Below, piece after piece: positions 6,485-13,668 of a stretch of DNA of 64,000 nucleotides (position 1 is the first letter of the stretch; the number at the start of each line of letters is the position of its first letter). Source of the stretch: a virus. Location of the stretch: positions 64,001 to 128,000 of the IMG/VR virus record IMGVR_UViG_3300021425_002093. One strand, 5' to 3'. The position numbers and the translations under genes were made by a program. The notes under the pieces were generated by a model. That model did no database searches and had not been told where the DNA came from. It was given only the letters and a program-made list of their open reading frames with translations.

Positions 6485-6568
6485 ATTATCTCATAGATTG
6501 GGGTAATTTGCAAGCTGTAAGCTATTGATTTATAACGTGTTTTATTTGTTAATAAAATCAATGACTTA
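6485..6568 (-). promoter_or_regulatory. Sigma70-type early promoter with two upstream inverted IHF-consensus-like boxes
   Basis: TTGCAA(6513-6508)-N17-GATAAT(6490-6485). AATCAAtagcTTA (6530-6518, minus) and AATCAAtgacTTA (6556-6568, plus) both match WATCAANNNNTTR. Confidence 0.7.
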
Positions 6569-6604
6569 GGAGTGAAAATATTGAACATTTTTTAGACTTT
6601 TTTG

Positions 6605-6904
6605 TTATTTGCCTATGTGTTCTATATTCTCTTTGGATATAACTTGATACGCTCCCTTGTTGTAAGCGGGAGCTACAGTATAGCCGGAGCTAATCTCAAG
6701 TTTTTCTTCACGAGAAAGCGAGGAATATTCCTCGTGGGAAGATTTGGAATCTGCTGAAGGATAGTATGGTGTTTCTCTATAGTACACTGGTTCAGCTTTC
6801 AGTTCTACGAACGGGGCTTTAGTTTTCCGAGCAGTTTTCCAGTGATTAGTTTTCTTCTTGCGTCCTGTTGATGTATGACGCATAGAACCATAGAGCATTC
6901 CCAT
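6605..6904 (-). CDS. Basic hypothetical protein
   Basis: SD GGAGG; C-terminal YTVAPAYNKGAYQVI motif; has its own promoter. Confidence 0.8.
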   Translation of the reverse strand: MGMLYGSMRHTSTGRKKKTNHWKTARKTKAPFVELKAEPVYYRETPYYPSADSKSSHEEYSSLSREEKLEISSGYTVAPAYNKGAYQVISKENIEHIGK

Positions 6905-6931
6905 ATCTATCCTCCGCAGATTAATGACACA

Positions 6932-6960
6932 ATTCTAGCATAAGAAAAGCTAGTAGTCAA
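6932..6960 (-). promoter_or_regulatory. Sigma70-type promoter
   Basis: TTGACT-N17-TAGAAT with TGn extension. Confidence 0.75.
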
Positions 6961-6962
6961 GG

Positions 6963-7613
6963 CTACCGAGATTCGATTGCGATCCAGTAGTTGACTCCAT
7001 TAGAACGGAAGTGTGCCATTCCCTTGGTCGAAAGGGCTACCTGGTAGTCTTGCTCCAGCAGTTTGAGATAGTCTGTTTTGATAATCATATCAAATGGCTC
7101 AAACGTTTCGTCGGGTGCGGAGATAATGCTGAAAGTATCCGCTGTAGAGTTTTTGCTATCGACGGCTGAAAGTAAGACACCTCGACCAGAACTAGAGAAA
7201 GAAATCTCAGGAAGTCCAAGGACAGCTGCAGCGTCTCGAACCTTCTTGATTTCTTCCCAAGTGATGTTGATGTCAGCAACAATATCAGGAACATTAATAT
7301 CCTTATCGGGTGGAGAAACAATCATGTTCTCTGAAGTGTACGTATACTTAACAGTACTCTTCGCATCACCGATGACAAACTGAGTTTCCTCAAGTGCAAT
7401 CTCCGGCTCATCAAACAAGGAAAGGGTTGCCAGAAAACGACCGAGATTGTATACGCCGACTGACTTCTCGAATGATTCGTCGATTTCGGCTGCAGCCATG
7501 ACTGTCTTCTGGGGCGAGATAGTTCTCAAGACACTTCCAGATCGAAACATAATACTGGGATTGATCTGAGAGAAATTTTTAAGTACTGAAATTGTATTGT
7601 CACTAAATTGCAT
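6963..7613 (-). CDS. gp45: DNA polymerase sliding clamp
   Basis: MQFSDNTISVLKNFSQINPSI...GVYNLGRFL..LSLF...YWIAIE. Start placed at ATG 7613 (SD AAAGGA) rather than 7634. Confidence 0.95.
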   Translation of the reverse strand: MQFSDNTISVLKNFSQINPSIMFRSGSVLRTISPQKTVMAAAEIDESFEKSVGVYNLGRFLATLSLFDEPEIALEETQFVIGDAKSTVKYTYTSENMIVSPPDKDINVPDIVADINITWEEIKKVRDAAAVLGLPEISFSSSGRGVLLSAVDSKNSTADTFSIISAPDETFEPFDMIIKTDYLKLLEQDYQVALSTKGMAHFRSNGVNYWIAIESR

Positions 7614-7646
7614 AAGATATAATCCTTTTTTCAAGATTTAAAAGAG

Positions 7647-7675
7647 AGTTTATCACAAAAATCACTTGATGGCAA
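7647..7675 (-). promoter_or_regulatory. Sigma70-type promoter for gp45
   Basis: TTGCCA-N17-TAAACT with TGn extension. Confidence 0.6.
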
Positions 7676-8369
7676 TAGCTCCGACAAATAAATGATTCTG
7701 CCAGAACGGTTGAATTTTGTCAAACCCAAATCCCGCCGTAGCGAGAGCAGATTGTATTTCTTTCCATGTCATTGGCTTCAACATATTTCGAAGAGTTTGT
7801 TCTTTGTCCAAAATGTCTTTGTCTGAGAAGTTTTCCCGCTTGTAATCGTAATATGTAAACGTCATCATTTCTTGTAGTCTTGGATCTTGAGCAACCGTTT
7901 TCTCAGCAAAGATAAACGCACCATTCTTGTTCAGTGAATTGTAAATCTTCTTGAGTACATCACGACGAGATGTGGGGGGCATGAATTGTAGGGTGAAGAT
8001 CGAAGTGATTAGATTTGCATTCACAAAATCATAGTTGCGAATGTCGCCAATATGAAACTCAACCTTTCCTTCGACACCACCAAACTCTTCACGCATTTGC
8101 TTTTCACGTTCGTCGAGAGCAGGAATAAATCCATCAGCATACTCAATTCCCACGTATGTTGCGTTGGGAGCAAATTCGTTGTTTTGTCTCATCATCGCAT
8201 GAATAGTCTTGCCTGTTGAACAACCAAGATCAATTACGTTTGTATCGTCTTCAACAAAGTATCTACTAAGATTCACTATATCATCATGTAAAACACTATA
8301 GCCACGAATAGATTTGTCGATATGATCATCGAATCCTTCGTCTCTATGTGCAAAGGTAAAATCAGGCAT
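7662..8369 (-). CDS. cmoA: CmoA-like carboxy-S-adenosylmethionine synthase (class I SAM fold)
   Basis: FDDHIDKSIRGY, VIDLGCSTG, FTLQF, GAFIFAEK, YDYKRENFS..I..K: the CmoA family motif order. Confidence 0.8.
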   Translation of the reverse strand: MPDFTFAHRDEGFDDHIDKSIRGYSVLHDDIVNLSRYFVEDDTNVIDLGCSTGKTIHAMMRQNNEFAPNATYVGIEYADGFIPALDEREKQMREEFGGVEGKVEFHIGDIRNYDFVNANLITSIFTLQFMPPTSRRDVLKKIYNSLNKNGAFIFAEKTVAQDPRLQEMMTFTYYDYKRENFSDKDILDKEQTLRNMLKPMTWKEIQSALATAGFGFDKIQPFWQNHLFVGAIAIK

Positions 8370-8904
8370 TGTTCACTCTCCTCAGTTCATCATCTGTCCA
8401 GTTACCAAACTTCTTTGCTACTCGTAAGGGTATCTCTATAAACTTATCGTCTATCCATTCATTATTGAGATAAACTTTCTTTCGCTTCATTGTCCACATA
8501 TACTTTCTTTGCATTTCATCTGTACTCACGAGCGCTTTATCACCTTGCTTGTTAAGTGTACAACCTATGTAGGGTAGTCCCTCTTCTTTCCAGTACTTAA
8601 TCTTTCTTGCGAGTGCGTGACACCATCGATAGTTCTCAGGCCAGTCGGGATCCCACTTGATATAGTAATCGACTTCTATCAGACCGATCAACTCACCATT
8701 TTGCTTCACGCCGAGATCTACTTTGTAATCGCCAAGCGGGTCTTTGCATATCTTAGTGTTTGCTTCATCCGTGATATTAAACTGCGCTTTTATGTACTCT
8801 CGAAATTCATTATCTGTGTGAATCAGATTTACTAATGCGTCTCTCTGATAAGAATCATCATAGCAGTTTTCGCCATTATGCTCTCGTATTCGTTGACTAA
8901 GCAT
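8362..8904 (-). CDS. Hypothetical protein, possible PD-(D/E)XK-type nuclease
   Basis: DYKVDLGV....LIGLIEVD...W...W...RK.KY. Overlaps both the MTase and cmoA genes. Confidence 0.5.
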   Translation of the reverse strand: MLSQRIREHNGENCYDDSYQRDALVNLIHTDNEFREYIKAQFNITDEANTKICKDPLGDYKVDLGVKQNGELIGLIEVDYYIKWDPDWPENYRWCHALARKIKYWKEEGLPYIGCTLNKQGDKALVSTDEMQRKYMWTMKRKKVYLNNEWIDDKFIEIPLRVAKKFGNWTDDELRRVNNA

Positions 8905-10114
8905 TGTAAGGCTTTATCACATTTTCATAGACGGACTTTGCAAGTTCAGCCATCATCTTAGGAGCAACCATTCGACCAATTCGCTCCGCTTTCTGATTGA
9001 AGGTTCCCGTCAGTTGATAGTCCTCGGGCAATCCCATCAATCTCTTGAGTTCTGGTATCGTAAACTTACGATTATAATCATAGTGAAACACTCCGGAAGT
9101 AGTCATCTGTTGACCTAACTGAGTTAGTGTTGGACAAGGATGATAGGGAGAAGGCCGTTTCATATTAAAACACGATCCTGTTGGATTCCAATCAGCGAAC
9201 TCAGGCTGACTTGGGTTCAGTGTCTTATGTGGTCGAAATGGTAAGTTCTCGATAAACTTTTTCTGATAGGTTCTTTGTACGTAGTCGAGCAACATTTGGA
9301 TCTCTTCTGGATCATTTTCAATACCAGATAGTGCGCTTTCCATAGGAATCTTATCAGAGGTTCTCTCTGGAAACACTCGATTCATCGTTAGCACATTCAT
9401 ATCAATTGAATCAAATACATCTTGTCGAATACAAACAAAGATGGTGCGCTCACGATTCTGTGCTGTGCCATAATCAGCCGCATTCATCACTTGATACGTA
9501 ACCTCGTATCCAATTTCTTCAAATGCATTGATAAACTCAACAAGCTTACCTTTTGCTTCGCCCATAGTGATTCCCTTAACGTTCTCAGCGATGATCACTT
9601 TTGGCTGAATATCTTTTGCAATCCGAACAAACTCTAAAAACAGATCTTCAATACCTTCTTGAACCTTGTTGTCTGAGTATTTCTTTACTCCATCCTGTAC
9701 GACTATCTCACCTTCGTGAACAATATCTCCATTCTCATCGAAGTAAGACTTGCGTGTGTCTTTTACGTAACCAGCCCAGCCTTTCTCACGCTTACCCGAA
9801 ACAGAAAACGCAGAACAAGGAGGCGATCCATCTAGGATATCAAGCTCACCCTTTTTAATATTTGCAAGAGAAAGAAAATCTTCTCCAGTATACTTCTTAA
9901 TATCATCAACTAGGATTTTCGTGTCAGTATAGTTTTGCTTGTATGACGCAATCGCTTCTTCAACAAACTCGTTGATTAAAAGAACTTTTCCACCAGCGAG
10001 ACGATATCCAGTGCTACTCCCACCGCCGCCAGCAAAACAACTAATGACACTAAATCTATTTTCGTTAGACGCATTGATTACATCCTCGACTGTATATGGC
10101 TTGTATTCATTCAT
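8897..10114 (-). CDS. C5 cytosine DNA methyltransferase homolog, probable carboxymethyltransferase
   Basis: Motif I FAGGGG, IV GSPPCSAFS, VI ENV, VIII QNRERTIF, IX R.FT..E..RLMGLP; motif X reads ERIGRMVAP instead of G-N-x-V. Confidence 0.9.
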   Translation of the reverse strand: MNEYKPYTVEDVINASNENRFSVISCFAGGGGSSTGYRLAGGKVLLINEFVEEAIASYKQNYTDTKILVDDIKKYTGEDFLSLANIKKGELDILDGSPPCSAFSVSGKREKGWAGYVKDTRKSYFDENGDIVHEGEIVVQDGVKKYSDNKVQEGIEDLFLEFVRIAKDIQPKVIIAENVKGITMGEAKGKLVEFINAFEEIGYEVTYQVMNAADYGTAQNRERTIFVCIRQDVFDSIDMNVLTMNRVFPERTSDKIPMESALSGIENDPEEIQMLLDYVQRTYQKKFIENLPFRPHKTLNPSQPEFADWNPTGSCFNMKRPSPYHPCPTLTQLGQQMTTSGVFHYDYNRKFTIPELKRLMGLPEDYQLTGTFNQKAERIGRMVAPKMMAELAKSVYENVIKPYNA

Positions 10115-11820
10115 GCTACTAACCTACTAAAGTTCTTGACCTTCTCAAAGCGAAGGGTGTTTTCAAATTTTTCATAAAGTTGTTCACTCTTGTGGCTAAT
10201 TATAAACACATTAGAGTCTGCTGTCAACTCATTAATGATCTTTAGGAATTCATCTGTTCCAGAGCTATCCAGCGATGAATCCATGATCTCATCCATAACT
10301 AGTAGATTCGTACTTACTGAGTTTCTCAATTTAGACACCGCTCTCCAAGTAAACATCAAAGACAGATCAATTCTAAGTTTTTCACCCTCAGAAAAAGAAG
10401 CGTAAGAAAACTCGTCACGGAATCGACTCTTAATTGTTTCGTTAAAGCTTTCATCAAGTTCAAACTGAACAAAAAAGTCCATCGCAGCAAGGTACTTATT
10501 TATCAGTTTGTTCATGATTGGAACATACTGCTTGATAATCCTTGTCTTAATGCCACCATCCTTGAGCATTGTACTAACGATTGCCAAGACTTCTCTCTTG
10601 TCCATTAGCTCCTGTTGTTCTGCAATCTTTTCATTGAGTTCGTCCTGCATGGCTTCGATAGTCGTAGTGTCAATTTCTTCAGCCTCTTTTTCTGCTGACT
10701 CCAAATCATTTTTTATTCCTTTTAGCGAGTTCATTGCAAATTTTTGATTCGCAACATGTTCTCTCATTAACAAATGCTTTTTATTAATATCATCTTCAAT
10801 ATCTGATATCTCATCGATACGCTTGTTGAGTTCGTCTAACTTTTCTTGTAAAGAATCTAAGCCATTTTCGAGTTCAATACGCTTCTTATTTTGCACACCG
10901 ACATGACTTTCTTTAAAGTCTGAATCAATGTCTTGCTGACAAGTAGGACATTCATCATGATTCTCATAGAAAGAGATATCTTTCACCAACGTCCGTAACT
11001 TGTTTTTTAGATCTTGATCAATGTTTTGAGCATTCTTTAGCTTTTTCTTAATGCTATCCTTGTCAGATATTGATCCTAGAAGTGACTGTATCTCAACATC
11101 GATTGTATCGGCTAGTTCCCGCTGTTCCTCAACCTGCGACACTTGTTCTTTGATCTTTTCCTTTAGATCGTCAATTTTATTTTCATGCAACTTGCGAATA
11201 GACTCGTTGTGATCTTTTGCGGAGTCAATCTTGTTCTCTACAAGTGAAATCTGATACTTGTTTTCATCAATACCACTCTTGTTTGTAGAAACATGTTCTT
11301 TGAGTAACGTGTTCATCGTAGTGAAGATTTGAATATCAAGAAGATCCTCAATGACCTCACGTCGATCTTTTGCACTTAGTTGCATGAAAGGAATAAACGT
11401 AGAAGATCCAAGTACAACGACCTGTCCAAAAGACTTGTAACTGAGCTTCAGAATCGTATCTTCAAGATACGCTTGATAATCTCTGGCTGCAGCGTCTTGA
11501 TTAAGTAGCTTTCCATCACAGTAAATTTCAAAGATCGCTGGCTTGATACCACGACGAACAAGATATGTTTTACCCTTGTTAGTAAATTCAATCTCGGTCT
11601 CAAGTCCCTTTTTGTTGATGCTGTTCATCAACTGAGGCTTGTTGATCTTTCTAAAGGGTTTGCCATAAAGAGCAAAGCAGATGGCGTCTAGCATTGTAGA
11701 CTTACCCGCTCCGTTCTCACCCACAACAAGAGTAGATTTATTCTTGTTGAGTTGGACTTCCGTCCATACATTCCCTGTAGATAGAAAATTCTTCCATCTA
11801 ACGGTTTTGAATACTATCAT
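10111..11820 (-). CDS. gp46: Recombination endonuclease ATPase subunit (Rad50/SbcC-like)
   Basis: GENGAGKST, CPTC zinc hook, FSEGEK signature, MDE Walker B, ISH. Confidence 0.97.
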   Translation of the reverse strand: MIVFKTVRWKNFLSTGNVWTEVQLNKNKSTLVVGENGAGKSTMLDAICFALYGKPFRKINKPQLMNSINKKGLETEIEFTNKGKTYLVRRGIKPAIFEIYCDGKLLNQDAAARDYQAYLEDTILKLSYKSFGQVVVLGSSTFIPFMQLSAKDRREVIEDLLDIQIFTTMNTLLKEHVSTNKSGIDENKYQISLVENKIDSAKDHNESIRKLHENKIDDLKEKIKEQVSQVEEQRELADTIDVEIQSLLGSISDKDSIKKKLKNAQNIDQDLKNKLRTLVKDISFYENHDECPTCQQDIDSDFKESHVGVQNKKRIELENGLDSLQEKLDELNKRIDEISDIEDDINKKHLLMREHVANQKFAMNSLKGIKNDLESAEKEAEEIDTTTIEAMQDELNEKIAEQQELMDKREVLAIVSTMLKDGGIKTRIIKQYVPIMNKLINKYLAAMDFFVQFELDESFNETIKSRFRDEFSYASFSEGEKLRIDLSLMFTWRAVSKLRNSVSTNLLVMDEIMDSSLDSSGTDEFLKIINELTADSNVFIISHKSEQLYEKFENTLRFEKVKNFSRLVA

Positions 11821-12047
11821 CTAATAATCTCAATGTCAGCTTCAGTCTCAATAACAACACGAGCACCACACGAAAGAATAGGCTTGTCGCTTCCTCCGTA
11901 TCGCACTACCGATTCACCATGAATTTTGACTTCATGACAATATGTGTTACTTCGGCCTTCTTTGATTGTGATCACAGGCTCATCAGTTCCATGCTTTTTG
12001 TTTGCACGAATTTTATGCTGATTTACATGAATATACTTTTTACTCAT
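11817..12047 (-). CDS. Small conserved hypothetical protein
   Basis: IHVNQHKIRAN...PVITIK...LSCGARV.IET; overlaps gp47 and gp46. Confidence 0.75.
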   Translation of the reverse strand: MSKKYIHVNQHKIRANKKHGTDEPVITIKEGRSNTYCHEVKIHGESVVRYGGSDKPILSCGARVVIETEADIEIIR

Positions 12048-13114
12048 TCGATGCTTATCGCCTCATGATACAATTCACCCAAAAGCTTTTCGATTTTTTC
12101 TTTCTTGCCGTTCACATCAATATTGTCAATATAGTTCTTCAAGATAGTTAACGTATCTTGAGCCTCATCAACAAGTTCGTCTTCATCGATGCCGTCCAAG
12201 TTCTTGTGATCTTCAACTACTTTAATATCAGCAGGCCCTACTTCTTGAATCTTATCCAAATACATGTCGAAAAAGTATGGATTGCTCTTAGTCTGTACTA
12301 TAACTTTTATATACGTGTTTGTCAAGTCATTAAAGTCGAGAGCCGCAACATCTTCCATCGTCATGTCTGTATCGTCATAGAATAGCTTATGAAACATCTT
12401 GAGAGGATTCTTGACGTAGCTCATCTCACGGGTGTCTGTATCAAAAACACTAAACCCACGGACTTGATCGTAGTCTGACCAGGTCATCTCATATTGAGCA
12501 CCCAGATACGTAATGTTTCCATGAGAAGACGGATGATGAAAGTGACCAGAATAAACGGAGTCAAACTTTCTAAAGATATCTTTATTGAGGCCATGCTCGC
12601 ACAACATACCTCTCATCATTTCATAGCCAGCGATTTCAAAGTGTCCCATAACAACTTGAGCAGACGTGTCTTCAAGTGCTTTCATTGTAGACTCTTCATT
12701 ATCTGCACAAATCCACGGAGAGAGCAGAATTTTACATCCGTCTAAATCTACCTCCACAGGATCTTGCCAATATAGATGAATGTTATCATACGCTGTGTTT
12801 TGATATAGCTGTCGAATGCTATTGACTTCGTTCGTATTTTTATAGAACGTATCATGATTTCCAGCAATCATATACAGTTCGATATCGTTCTCCGCACAAG
12901 GACGAATGAAATGCTTTTCAAAATTTGCGGCTGTAACAAAGTTCACATACTTACGTCGATCAAAGACATCTCCCAAGTGAAAAATAGTCTTGATATTGTT
13001 TTCGATTAGATAAGGAAAGAACACCTCATCATAGAATCGATGAAAGTAATCGGCAAAGGCTTTAGAGTCATTACGAGCACCCCAATGTGTGTCATTTAGA
13101 ATGGCAATCTGCAT
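12044..13114 (-). CDS. gp47: Recombination endonuclease nuclease subunit (Mre11/SbcD-like)
   Basis: DTHWG, LGDVFD, GNHD, GHF, SGHFH metallophosphoesterase motifs. Confidence 0.97.
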   Translation of the reverse strand: MQIAILNDTHWGARNDSKAFADYFHRFYDEVFFPYLIENNIKTIFHLGDVFDRRKYVNFVTAANFEKHFIRPCAENDIELYMIAGNHDTFYKNTNEVNSIRQLYQNTAYDNIHLYWQDPVEVDLDGCKILLSPWICADNEESTMKALEDTSAQVVMGHFEIAGYEMMRGMLCEHGLNKDIFRKFDSVYSGHFHHPSSHGNITYLGAQYEMTWSDYDQVRGFSVFDTDTREMSYVKNPLKMFHKLFYDDTDMTMEDVAALDFNDLTNTYIKVIVQTKSNPYFFDMYLDKIQEVGPADIKVVEDHKNLDGIDEDELVDEAQDTLTILKNYIDNIDVNGKKEKIEKLLGELYHEAISIE

Positions 13115-13122
13115 AGAAACTC

Positions 13123-13668
13123 CTATCCTATGAATTCACTTAAGTCTACACTCTTCTTATTCTTGGCTTGTGCTTTTTTCTTTTCATCAATTTTCTTTTC
13201 GTATGTTTTTACGAAATCGTTCATGTAGTCGTTCGCAAACTCAGTATTCGTCATGTCAAATGTATCATCAGATCCATCTGAATCGACTACACTGTCGGTC
13301 ATGATTGAATGCTCAATGACTTTGTGTTTGATATAGAGTTGCTTCTTTTCCTTTTCAATTCGTCGAAGGAATGCGAACCAGATAATTTGCGTAAAGTATG
13401 CAAAGGGATTCTTCGATTTGTTTGGATCAAAGTTGTCGAGCGCTTGTACTGCGTTTTCAAGGCCGTCAGAGATCATCTCATCTTTATACGAGTAGCCAGC
13501 AAAATTAGGCTTGCTTGATAGTCTTCTTGAGATCTGTAAAATACAATCTCCGATATAATTAGGAATCTGAGGCTTGTTTTTTCCTTCGCTTTCTGCTTTT
13601 CTACAAACCTCTTTATACGAGATTATCGCTTCAAGGAACTCAGCGTTATTTACATAATTTTTAGACAT
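13123..13668 (-). CDS. gp55: Late-transcription sigma factor
   Basis: NYVNNAEF, PNYIG, PNF.GY.YKDEMISDG.EN, NPFAYFTQI...AFLRRI.KEKKQ. Confidence 0.97.
   Translation of the reverse strand: MSKNYVNNAEFLEAIISYKEVCRKAESEGKNKPQIPNYIGDCILQISRRLSSKPNFAGYSYKDEMISDGLENAVQALDNFDPNKSKNPFAYFTQIIWFAFLRRIEKEKKQLYIKHKVIEHSIMTDSVVDSDGSDDTFDMTNTEFANDYMNDFVKTYEKKIDEKKKAQAKNKKSVDLSEFIG

Follow-up and report, generated by a model that had tools for sequence, protein, structure and literature searches.

A predicted CmoX-CmoA DNA carboxymethylation cassette with an embedded nuclease-like gene in an uncultured marine T4-like phage

The phage represented by IMG/VR record IMGVR_UViG_3300021425_002093 carries three minus-strand open reading frames (ORFs) between the genes coding for the gp46 recombination nuclease subunit and the gp45 sliding clamp, with adjoining ORFs sharing 8 nt, and this locus raises the question of what mark the three genes leave on the phage DNA and what the middle one contributes. 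The stretch analyzed, referred to here as the window, is the 64,000 nt corresponding to bases 64001–128000 of the 143,934-base record, which is judged to be ~80% complete. An initial annotation, made from the sequence of the window, had described three overlapping genes at this position and had proposed that they form a carboxymethylcytosine cassette; both the ORF coordinates and the matches of the flanking genes agree with that layout. The two outer genes are homologues of cmoX and cmoA of the CmoA-CmoX-CmoY system of Synechococcus phage S-B43 (Yang et al., Nat Commun 2025; December 2025; PMC12783734), the proteins of which are designated SpCmoA, SpCmoX, and SpCmoY below. Sequence comparison makes it highly probable that the cassette directs DNA carboxymethylation by CmoX and CmoA, as in S-B43, with the protein activities predicted from homology. 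The features of the cassette are as follows.

8897–10114, minus strand: cmoX, homologue of DNA cytosine C5-carboxymethyltransferases, 405 aa (PF00145, 8YF3, SpCmoX alignment).
8960–8986, minus strand: motif X, ERIGRMVAP (cmoX residues 377–385), with the R381 codon at 8972–8974 (HMMER alignments).
8362–8904, minus strand: ORF180, PD-(D/E)xK-fold nuclease-like protein, 180 aa (AlphaFold2 model, fold matches), with 8-nt overlaps with both cmoX and cmoA.
7662–8369, minus strand: cmoA, carboxy-SAM synthase homologue, 235 aa (TIGR00740, SpCmoA identity, PDB 1IM8 and 4GEK, phrog_4752).

The 405-residue protein is a C5-cytosine methyltransferase homologue (PF00145, E = 1.8e-52; TIGR00675 also matches). 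Its best solved relative is PDB 8YF3, the crystal structure of S-B43 CmoX (PMC12783734), which matches residues 6–400 (E = 1.5e-110), and the two proteins share ~50% identity. SpCmoX moves the carboxymethyl group of carboxy-S-adenosylmethionine (Cx-SAM) onto the C5 position of cytosine in GC motifs and accepts no cofactor other than Cx-SAM (PMC12783734). The catalytic SPPC motif (S97-P98-P99-C100) is shared, with C100 aligned to C98 of SpCmoX, and the ENV (E177-N178-V179) and QNRER (Q219-N-R221-E-R223) motifs are invariant between the two. Residues F27, E49, F50, and D71 correspond to F25, E47, F48, and D69 of SpCmoX, which contact the adenine and ribose moieties of Cx-SAM in the crystal (PMC12783734). 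The target-recognition region can be aligned with that of SpCmoX, yet is diverged.

In motif X, ERIGRMVAP of the window protein aligns with ERVGRMVPP of SpCmoX such that R381 is opposite R350 (HMMER). The same column contains the Asn of the IGNAV motif of M.HaeIII and is the counterpart of N304 of M.HhaI, placing R381 at the cofactor position. In SpCmoX, R350 stands in for M.HhaI Asn304 and contacts the carboxymethyl group, and an R350N substitution is inactive (PMC12783734). The initial annotation had recorded retention of the catalytic PC and ENV motifs, both of which are found (at C100 of SPPC and at residues 177–179), and had placed motif X at ~8960–8987, in agreement with the position of residues 377–385. 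Its comparison with the N374K variant of M.MpeI, an engineered carboxymethyltransferase, is likewise borne out as cited in PMC12783734. In that variant a positive charge at the corresponding residue of motif X switches the cofactor to Cx-SAM (PMC12783734), but the enzyme is engineered, contains Lys rather than Arg, and is CpG-specific, whereas the natural family prefers GpC. SPPC together with R350 constitutes the search criterion for CmoX in PMC12783734, and as the window transferase has every sequence feature by which CmoX was defined there, it is on sequence grounds a CmoX.

The 235-residue protein, whose gene is 0.5 kb downstream of cmoX within one string of overlapping genes, had been called CmoA-like in the initial annotation, and all of the matches agree with this. 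It matches TIGR00740 (E = 1.4e-38, 132.9 bits), phrog_4752 (3.4e-63), and the CmoA/YecO structures 1IM8 (E = 2e-27) and 4GEK (E. coli CmoA; E = 2.6e-25), and is 55% identical over its whole length to SpCmoA, which has been shown to be a fast Cx-SAM synthase (PMC12783734). Its TIGR00740 score misses the equivalog cut-off of 193.3 bits, although the biochemically proven SpCmoA scores lower still (115.6 bits), and because of this the cut-off delimits the bacterial tRNA-pathway clade rather than Cx-SAM synthase activity. HMMER aligns no Arg of the window protein with Arg199 of E. coli CmoA, a residue that presumably plays a role in the enzyme; however, SpCmoA has the same sequence as the window protein around this site (DKE..LR.MLKP), and the missing Arg199 equivalent is therefore not evidence against activity. 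CmoB family matches are absent from the 143,934-base record and no tRNA gene was found in the window, in agreement with the initial annotation, which saw neither cmoB nor a tRNA target; this fits DNA, and not tRNA, as the target.

In the proposed pathway, CmoA would make carboxy-SAM from SAM and host prephenate. CmoX would flip out the target cytosine, with Cys100 attacking C6, and would then place the carboxymethyl group on C5 while Arg381 holds the cofactor carboxylate. The target context is likely to be GpC, by analogy with SpCmoX. The product, 5-carboxymethylcytosine (5cxmC), would protect the phage DNA from restriction; we infer this anti-restriction purpose for the mark, and 5cxmC is known to block HhaI (PMC12783734). 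Phage-made Cx-SAM and an Arg-bearing C5 transferase writing 5cxmC had been proposed in the initial annotation, and this is supported by orthology and by the aligned Arg. The reported cyanophage CmoA-carboxymethyltransferase pair to which it referred is the S-B43 system, and the Cx-SAM/CmoX chemistry that it inferred for the window is thus correct but already published (PMC12783734).

Similarities to S-B43 extend beyond the ~50% (CmoX) and 55% (CmoA) identities and the conserved SPPC Cys, carboxyl-binding Arg, and Cx-SAM contacts, in that both phages are T4-like, have these genes in the replication block, and lack CmoB. The gene order differs, being cmoA-cmoY-cmoX in S-B43 and cmoX-ORF180-cmoA in the window. 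The record has no CmoY match, and 5cxmC rather than a glycine amide is the predicted product; the nuclease-like gene is an addition that is absent from the account in PMC12783734. The window phage is also not a close relative of S-B43 (gp46 is ~47% identical to those of cyanophages).

The survey in PMC12783734 includes 5,615 transferases with SPPC and the Arg, and CmoA accompanies 4,257 of these. Searching IMG/VR with a CmoX protein alignment recovered more than 515 relatives, of which the best 80 were classified (loci discussed below are given L numbers). The GRMV motif is present in 78 of these 80, nearly all of which are beside CmoA; because it recurs in this way, the motif in the window transferase is not a chance occurrence. 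The usual site of the cassette among the 80 is the slot between gp46 and gp45, with cmoY-cmoX-cmoA, cmoX-cmoY-cmoA, cmoX-cmoA, tandem cmoX-cmoX-cmoA, and lone cmoX arrangements all represented. A megablast search with the window cassette against 50,697 phage records gave no match.

Several variations on this theme are seen among the IMG/VR loci. Tandem pairs of full-length cmoX genes precede cmoA in L065–L078, L081, L082, and L085; the second copies form a deep clade of their own (branch length 0.71), which suggests two carboxymethyltransferases with differing specificities. Other CmoX relatives, 36–41% identical, have Leu at the motif X Asn/Arg position (ARIGLMVAP; L003:4010–6194, Melnitz-3, and L011:1521–2750), a third state of this cofactor-pocket residue; in Melnitz the next gene encodes a Tet/JBP dioxygenase and is followed by a P-loop kinase-like gene. 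Ten loci (L090–L092, L094, L097, L098, L101, L104, L106, and L108) have an Arg-type cmoX in the gp46 slot with no cmoA downstream (0–4 kb of downstream sequence was checked, and in three cases the locus sequence runs out at the cmoX stop codon or close to it), and these phages may use host CmoA or have cmoA elsewhere. In 41 of the related loci L029–L108 an ORF of ~190 residues (170–200) lies between gp46 and the cassette, ~0.2–0.8 kb upstream of cmoY or cmoX. By eye it resembles peptide deformylase (EGCLS and HEMDH motifs), and there is none at this position in the window; hmmsearch found nothing to connect it with ORF180, and it was ruled out as a hidden relative of that protein.

The genes and signals flanking the cassette indicate the type of phage and when the cassette may be expressed.

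10111–11820, minus strand: gp46 recombination nuclease subunit, upstream flank (SMC_N/AAA_23 match).
6963–7634, minus strand: gp45 sliding clamp, downstream flank (gp45-slide_C match).
10199–10227, minus strand: putative sigma-70-type promoter, TTGACA-17 nt-TATAAT (12/12 consensus match).

The window gp46 is 47–53% identical to the gp46 proteins of T4-like cyanophages and of a Stenotrophomonas phage, and on the basis of these values the source is a distant, uncultured marine T4-like phage. The cmoX start codon overlaps the gp46 stop codon as ATGA. The putative promoter is in the 3'-terminal part of gp46, ~85 nt ahead of cmoX, and is the sole 12/12 consensus match in the 6500–13500 interval (a further sigma-70-type match, 11/12, is at 12325–12297). 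As a consensus match it suggests early expression of cmoX by the host polymerase, and with the genes located in the early replication/recombination block behind their own promoter, the mark would be laid down during DNA replication.

The middle gene, ORF180, is less readily assigned. The protein has no sequence match in Pfam, NCBIfam, PHROG, PADLOC, or PDB, and scanning 43 of its relatives singly gave no credible match (none to Pfam at E ≤ 1). A tblastn search of the 50,697 isolate phage records returned nothing at E ≤ 1e-3, a BFVD search returned phage proteins without names, and the sole lead from ESM Atlas was a weak one to PDDEXK_14. The family is small: it has 16 close clusters, and a collection of 1.8 billion proteins yields 54 representatives at 50% identity. 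An AlphaFold2 model built from the family alignment (pLDDT, the predicted local distance difference test score, of 85; pTM, the predicted template modelling score, of 0.82) has top VIA-align and Foldseek matches that are all PD-(D/E)xK enzymes. The best is the fusellovirus nuclease D212 (Z 9.0, VIA-align), followed by archaeal Hjc resolvases (Z 6–6.8, VIA-align), the restriction enzymes DpnI, NhoI, PvuII, MspI, and HinP1I (Z 4–5.6), the homing enzyme I-Ssp6803I (Z 5.2), and Vsr (1CW0; Z 3.7). The D212 and Hjc matches cover most of the model, and acidic residues are at the expected strand positions; sequence identity to those proteins is 8–13%.

Among the 43 diverse relatives, D17, D63, and K101 never vary; all 43 have Glu or Asp at position 77, 41/43 have an acidic residue at position 79, and 40/43 retain R100. 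In the model, one strand begins with D63 and the following strand carries E77-V-D79. These residues would correspond to the PD and (D/E)xK motifs, with an acidic residue in place of the usual Lys; the invariant K101 comes after the next strand, which, like the acidic replacement, is a difference from D212 and Hjc. The modelled structure identifies ORF180 as a PD-(D/E)xK-fold protein, and because the acidic/lysine set appears complete and is conserved, it is most likely an active metal-dependent DNA nuclease. The initial annotation had called the middle ORF nuclease-like, a description that holds at the level of the modelled fold and its matches and no further.

The genomic contexts of ORF180 relatives link one part of the family to cytosine modification. 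The ORF180 tree has two well-supported clades, and in the nearer one (99% support in the Shimodaira–Hasegawa-like approximate likelihood ratio test, SH-aLRT), which includes the window, the ORF in 9/9 loci directly follows a gene for a DNA cytosine-modifying transferase and overlaps it at that gene's 3' end. The partners are a CmoX of the window's own clade (the window and L004–L007), a CmoX of a separate clade (L015–L020, with L015–L017 also having cmoY), a Leu-type C5-methyltransferase (L011) related to the methyltransferase that precedes the Tet/JBP dioxygenase in Methylophilales phage Melnitz, and a TET-associated glycosyltransferase (TAGT; PF20691; L008–L010). The slot occupied by ORF180 between cmoX and cmoA houses cmoY in many relatives. 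At one of the TAGT loci (L008:4449–8758) the order is DNA polymerase, a 101-residue ORF, TAGT, the ORF180 relative, and proteins of 355 and 455 residues with no Pfam match, the latter distantly similar to a 427-residue Melnitz protein; this locus is probably another cytosine hypermodification cassette.

ORF180 has also been mobile. An IMG/VR search built on a closer alignment (A1) places the family in ~11 loci, compared with the more than 515 CmoX relatives. In the transferase tree the ORF180-bearing genes fall in three separate clades, which calls for three or more gains or losses. The two trees are incongruent: the ORFs behind TAGT, the Leu-type methyltransferase, and clade-B CmoX form one clade (98%), and the L020 ORF parts from its CmoX partners in the ORF180 tree. 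Identities are likewise out of step, with ORF180 at 55–59% and CmoX at 50–52% across CmoX clades, and 64% and 88%, respectively, within a clade. From this incongruence, the patchy gains and losses, and the discordant identities, the sequence comparisons indicate that ORF180 has moved between cassettes.

We tentatively propose that ORF180 belongs to a novel phage nuclease family functionally coupled to C5-cytosine hypermodification, either as a restriction-modification (RM)-like partner or as a Vsr-like nickase. In the first form ORF180 with CmoX would destroy unmarked host or rival DNA, and in the second it would nick the mismatches that arise when modified cytosines are deaminated. A functional link to C5-modified DNA is suggested because the near clade has been recruited behind three different, partly non-homologous cytosine-modifying transferases. 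There is precedent in dcm-vsr, in which the C5-cytosine transferase gene shares its 3' end with the gene for a small protein of restriction-endonuclease fold. The likeness of the window genes to dcm-vsr and to type II RM pairs is positional and at the level of fold only, as ORF180 lacks a sequence match to Vsr or restriction enzyme models (Pfam, PADLOC). Several points weigh against the proposal. The canonical (D/E)xK Lys is replaced by Asp/Glu in ORF180; members of the far clade lack a neighbouring modification gene, being located between gp44 and gp62, by gp59/thyX/gp32, or behind DNA polymerase; and neither the 80 closest CmoX loci nor the 50,697 isolate phage records contain ORF180. Most CmoX cassettes are without ORF180, and carboxymethylation therefore does not need it.

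A selfish homing nuclease would account equally well for the patchiness and mobility. ORF180 would then be a homing-type endonuclease inserted in the cassette with no role in the pathway, at most aiding spread of the cassette between co-infecting phages. The ~11 loci among so many CmoX relatives, the repeated gains or losses, and the incongruent trees are all as expected of such an element, as are the greater or equal conservation of ORF180 relative to CmoX between clades and its faster divergence within a clade, the solitary position of distant relatives between core genes (e.g. gp44 and gp62), and the fold match to I-Ssp6803I, itself a PD-(D/E)xK homing enzyme. However, a site-specific homing enzyme is not expected behind genes as unrelated as those for TAGT and the C5-methyltransferases, the overlaps at both junctions suggest translational coupling, and the catalytic residues are intact in every copy, all of which leave the homing explanation somewhat doubtful.

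It is unlikely that ORF180 is instead a general recombination nuclease of the T4-like replisome, an Hjc/D212-like junction or flap resolvase located in the cassette by accident. D212 and archaeal Hjc are its best fold matches, the whole family is within replication gene clusters of T4-like phages, and the gp44|gp62 and gp46|gp45 junctions are general insertion spots, but the family is too rare for a core resolvase and a cytosine-modifying transferase precedes every near-clade member. In the window the clamp-loader genes gp44 (1294–2235) and gp62 (3–260) are themselves separated by two extra minus-strand genes (257–1293), encoding a 275-residue, apparently membrane-spanning protein and a 70-residue Cys-rich protein (translation read by eye); in other phages this junction houses the far clade of the ORF180 family.

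Whichever role ORF180 plays, the mark left by CmoX depends on whether a ligase acts after it. The 143,934-base record has no match to PF00733 (Asn synthase), PF00501 (AMP-binding), or PF13535 (ATP-grasp), and no homologue of SpCmoY or of the closer metagenomic CmoY (L015). Because no CmoY-type ligase is matched, plain 5cxmC is probably the final mark of the window phage. The ligase-less cassette of Synechococcus phage S-CRM01 is a parallel, with CmoX and CmoA 50% and 54% identical to those of the window; it adjoins gp45/gp44/gp62 and its genes are annotated as methyltransferases. It differs in having the order cmoA-cmoX with nothing between; with no ligase seen, plain 5cxmC would be expected there too. 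Two considerations count against the pathway as drawn for the window: a ligase could sit in the part missing from the record, which is ~80% complete, and the target motif may be a different one, the window proteins being ~50–55% identical to the experimentally characterized enzymes.

Alternatively, 5cxmC could be an intermediate that a ligase or other enzyme, encoded in the missing ~20% or belonging to an unrecognized family, converts to an amide or another hypermodified base. Native S-B43 DNA contains only the glycine amide (PMC12783734), CmoY adjoins CmoX in most related loci, and three of the loci with an ORF180 relative (L015–L017) also carry CmoY. We regard this as quite improbable given the lack of ligase and CmoY matches over 143,934 bases and the occurrence of CmoX-CmoA pairs with no ligase nearby in S-CRM01 and several metagenomic loci. 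That the transferase is an ordinary 5-methylcytosine methyltransferase, with CmoA serving elsewhere (e.g. as a drain on host SAM or in RNA modification), is very improbable indeed, for although it matches TIGR00675 'dcm' and type II methyltransferase models strongly, and CmoA-driven SAM depletion is raised as an open question in PMC12783734, the cofactor-position Asn is replaced by the Arg found in 78/80 relatives, nearly all next to CmoA, SpCmoX uses only Cx-SAM and is dead as R350N (PMC12783734), and neither a CmoB match (in the record) nor tRNA genes (in the window) were found.

The composition of the record provides a further observation. CGCG does not occur in its 143,934 bases, against ~256 occurrences expected from composition and 228 from a Markov estimate, and is the sole absent 4-mer; GCGC is near expectation (239 vs 256). 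CGCG avoidance is seen in many related marine T4-like loci also, including Melnitz DNA (0 vs 10 expected). ORF180 was considered as the cause of the CGCG loss and rejected, as Melnitz is without an ORF180 relative and the CGCG counts of L019 and L020 are normal. The avoidance more likely reflects a host restriction enzyme.

The window therefore represents one more uncultured marine phage with a DNA modification system that has already been described and surveyed at scale. What may set it apart from S-B43 is the embedded gene of a nuclease family, together with 5cxmC that may stay unligated in native DNA. Plain 5cxmC is a candidate final mark of this phage; native phage DNA is not so far known to contain it, and that of S-B43 contains the glycine amide only. 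The total absence of CGCG suggests that this lineage pairs site avoidance with base modification against host restriction. ORF180 represents a small and rare nuclease family that accompanies genes for cytosine-C5 modification; should it sense the modification state, it would be a partner of a new type for hypermodified DNA and perhaps of use as a reagent.

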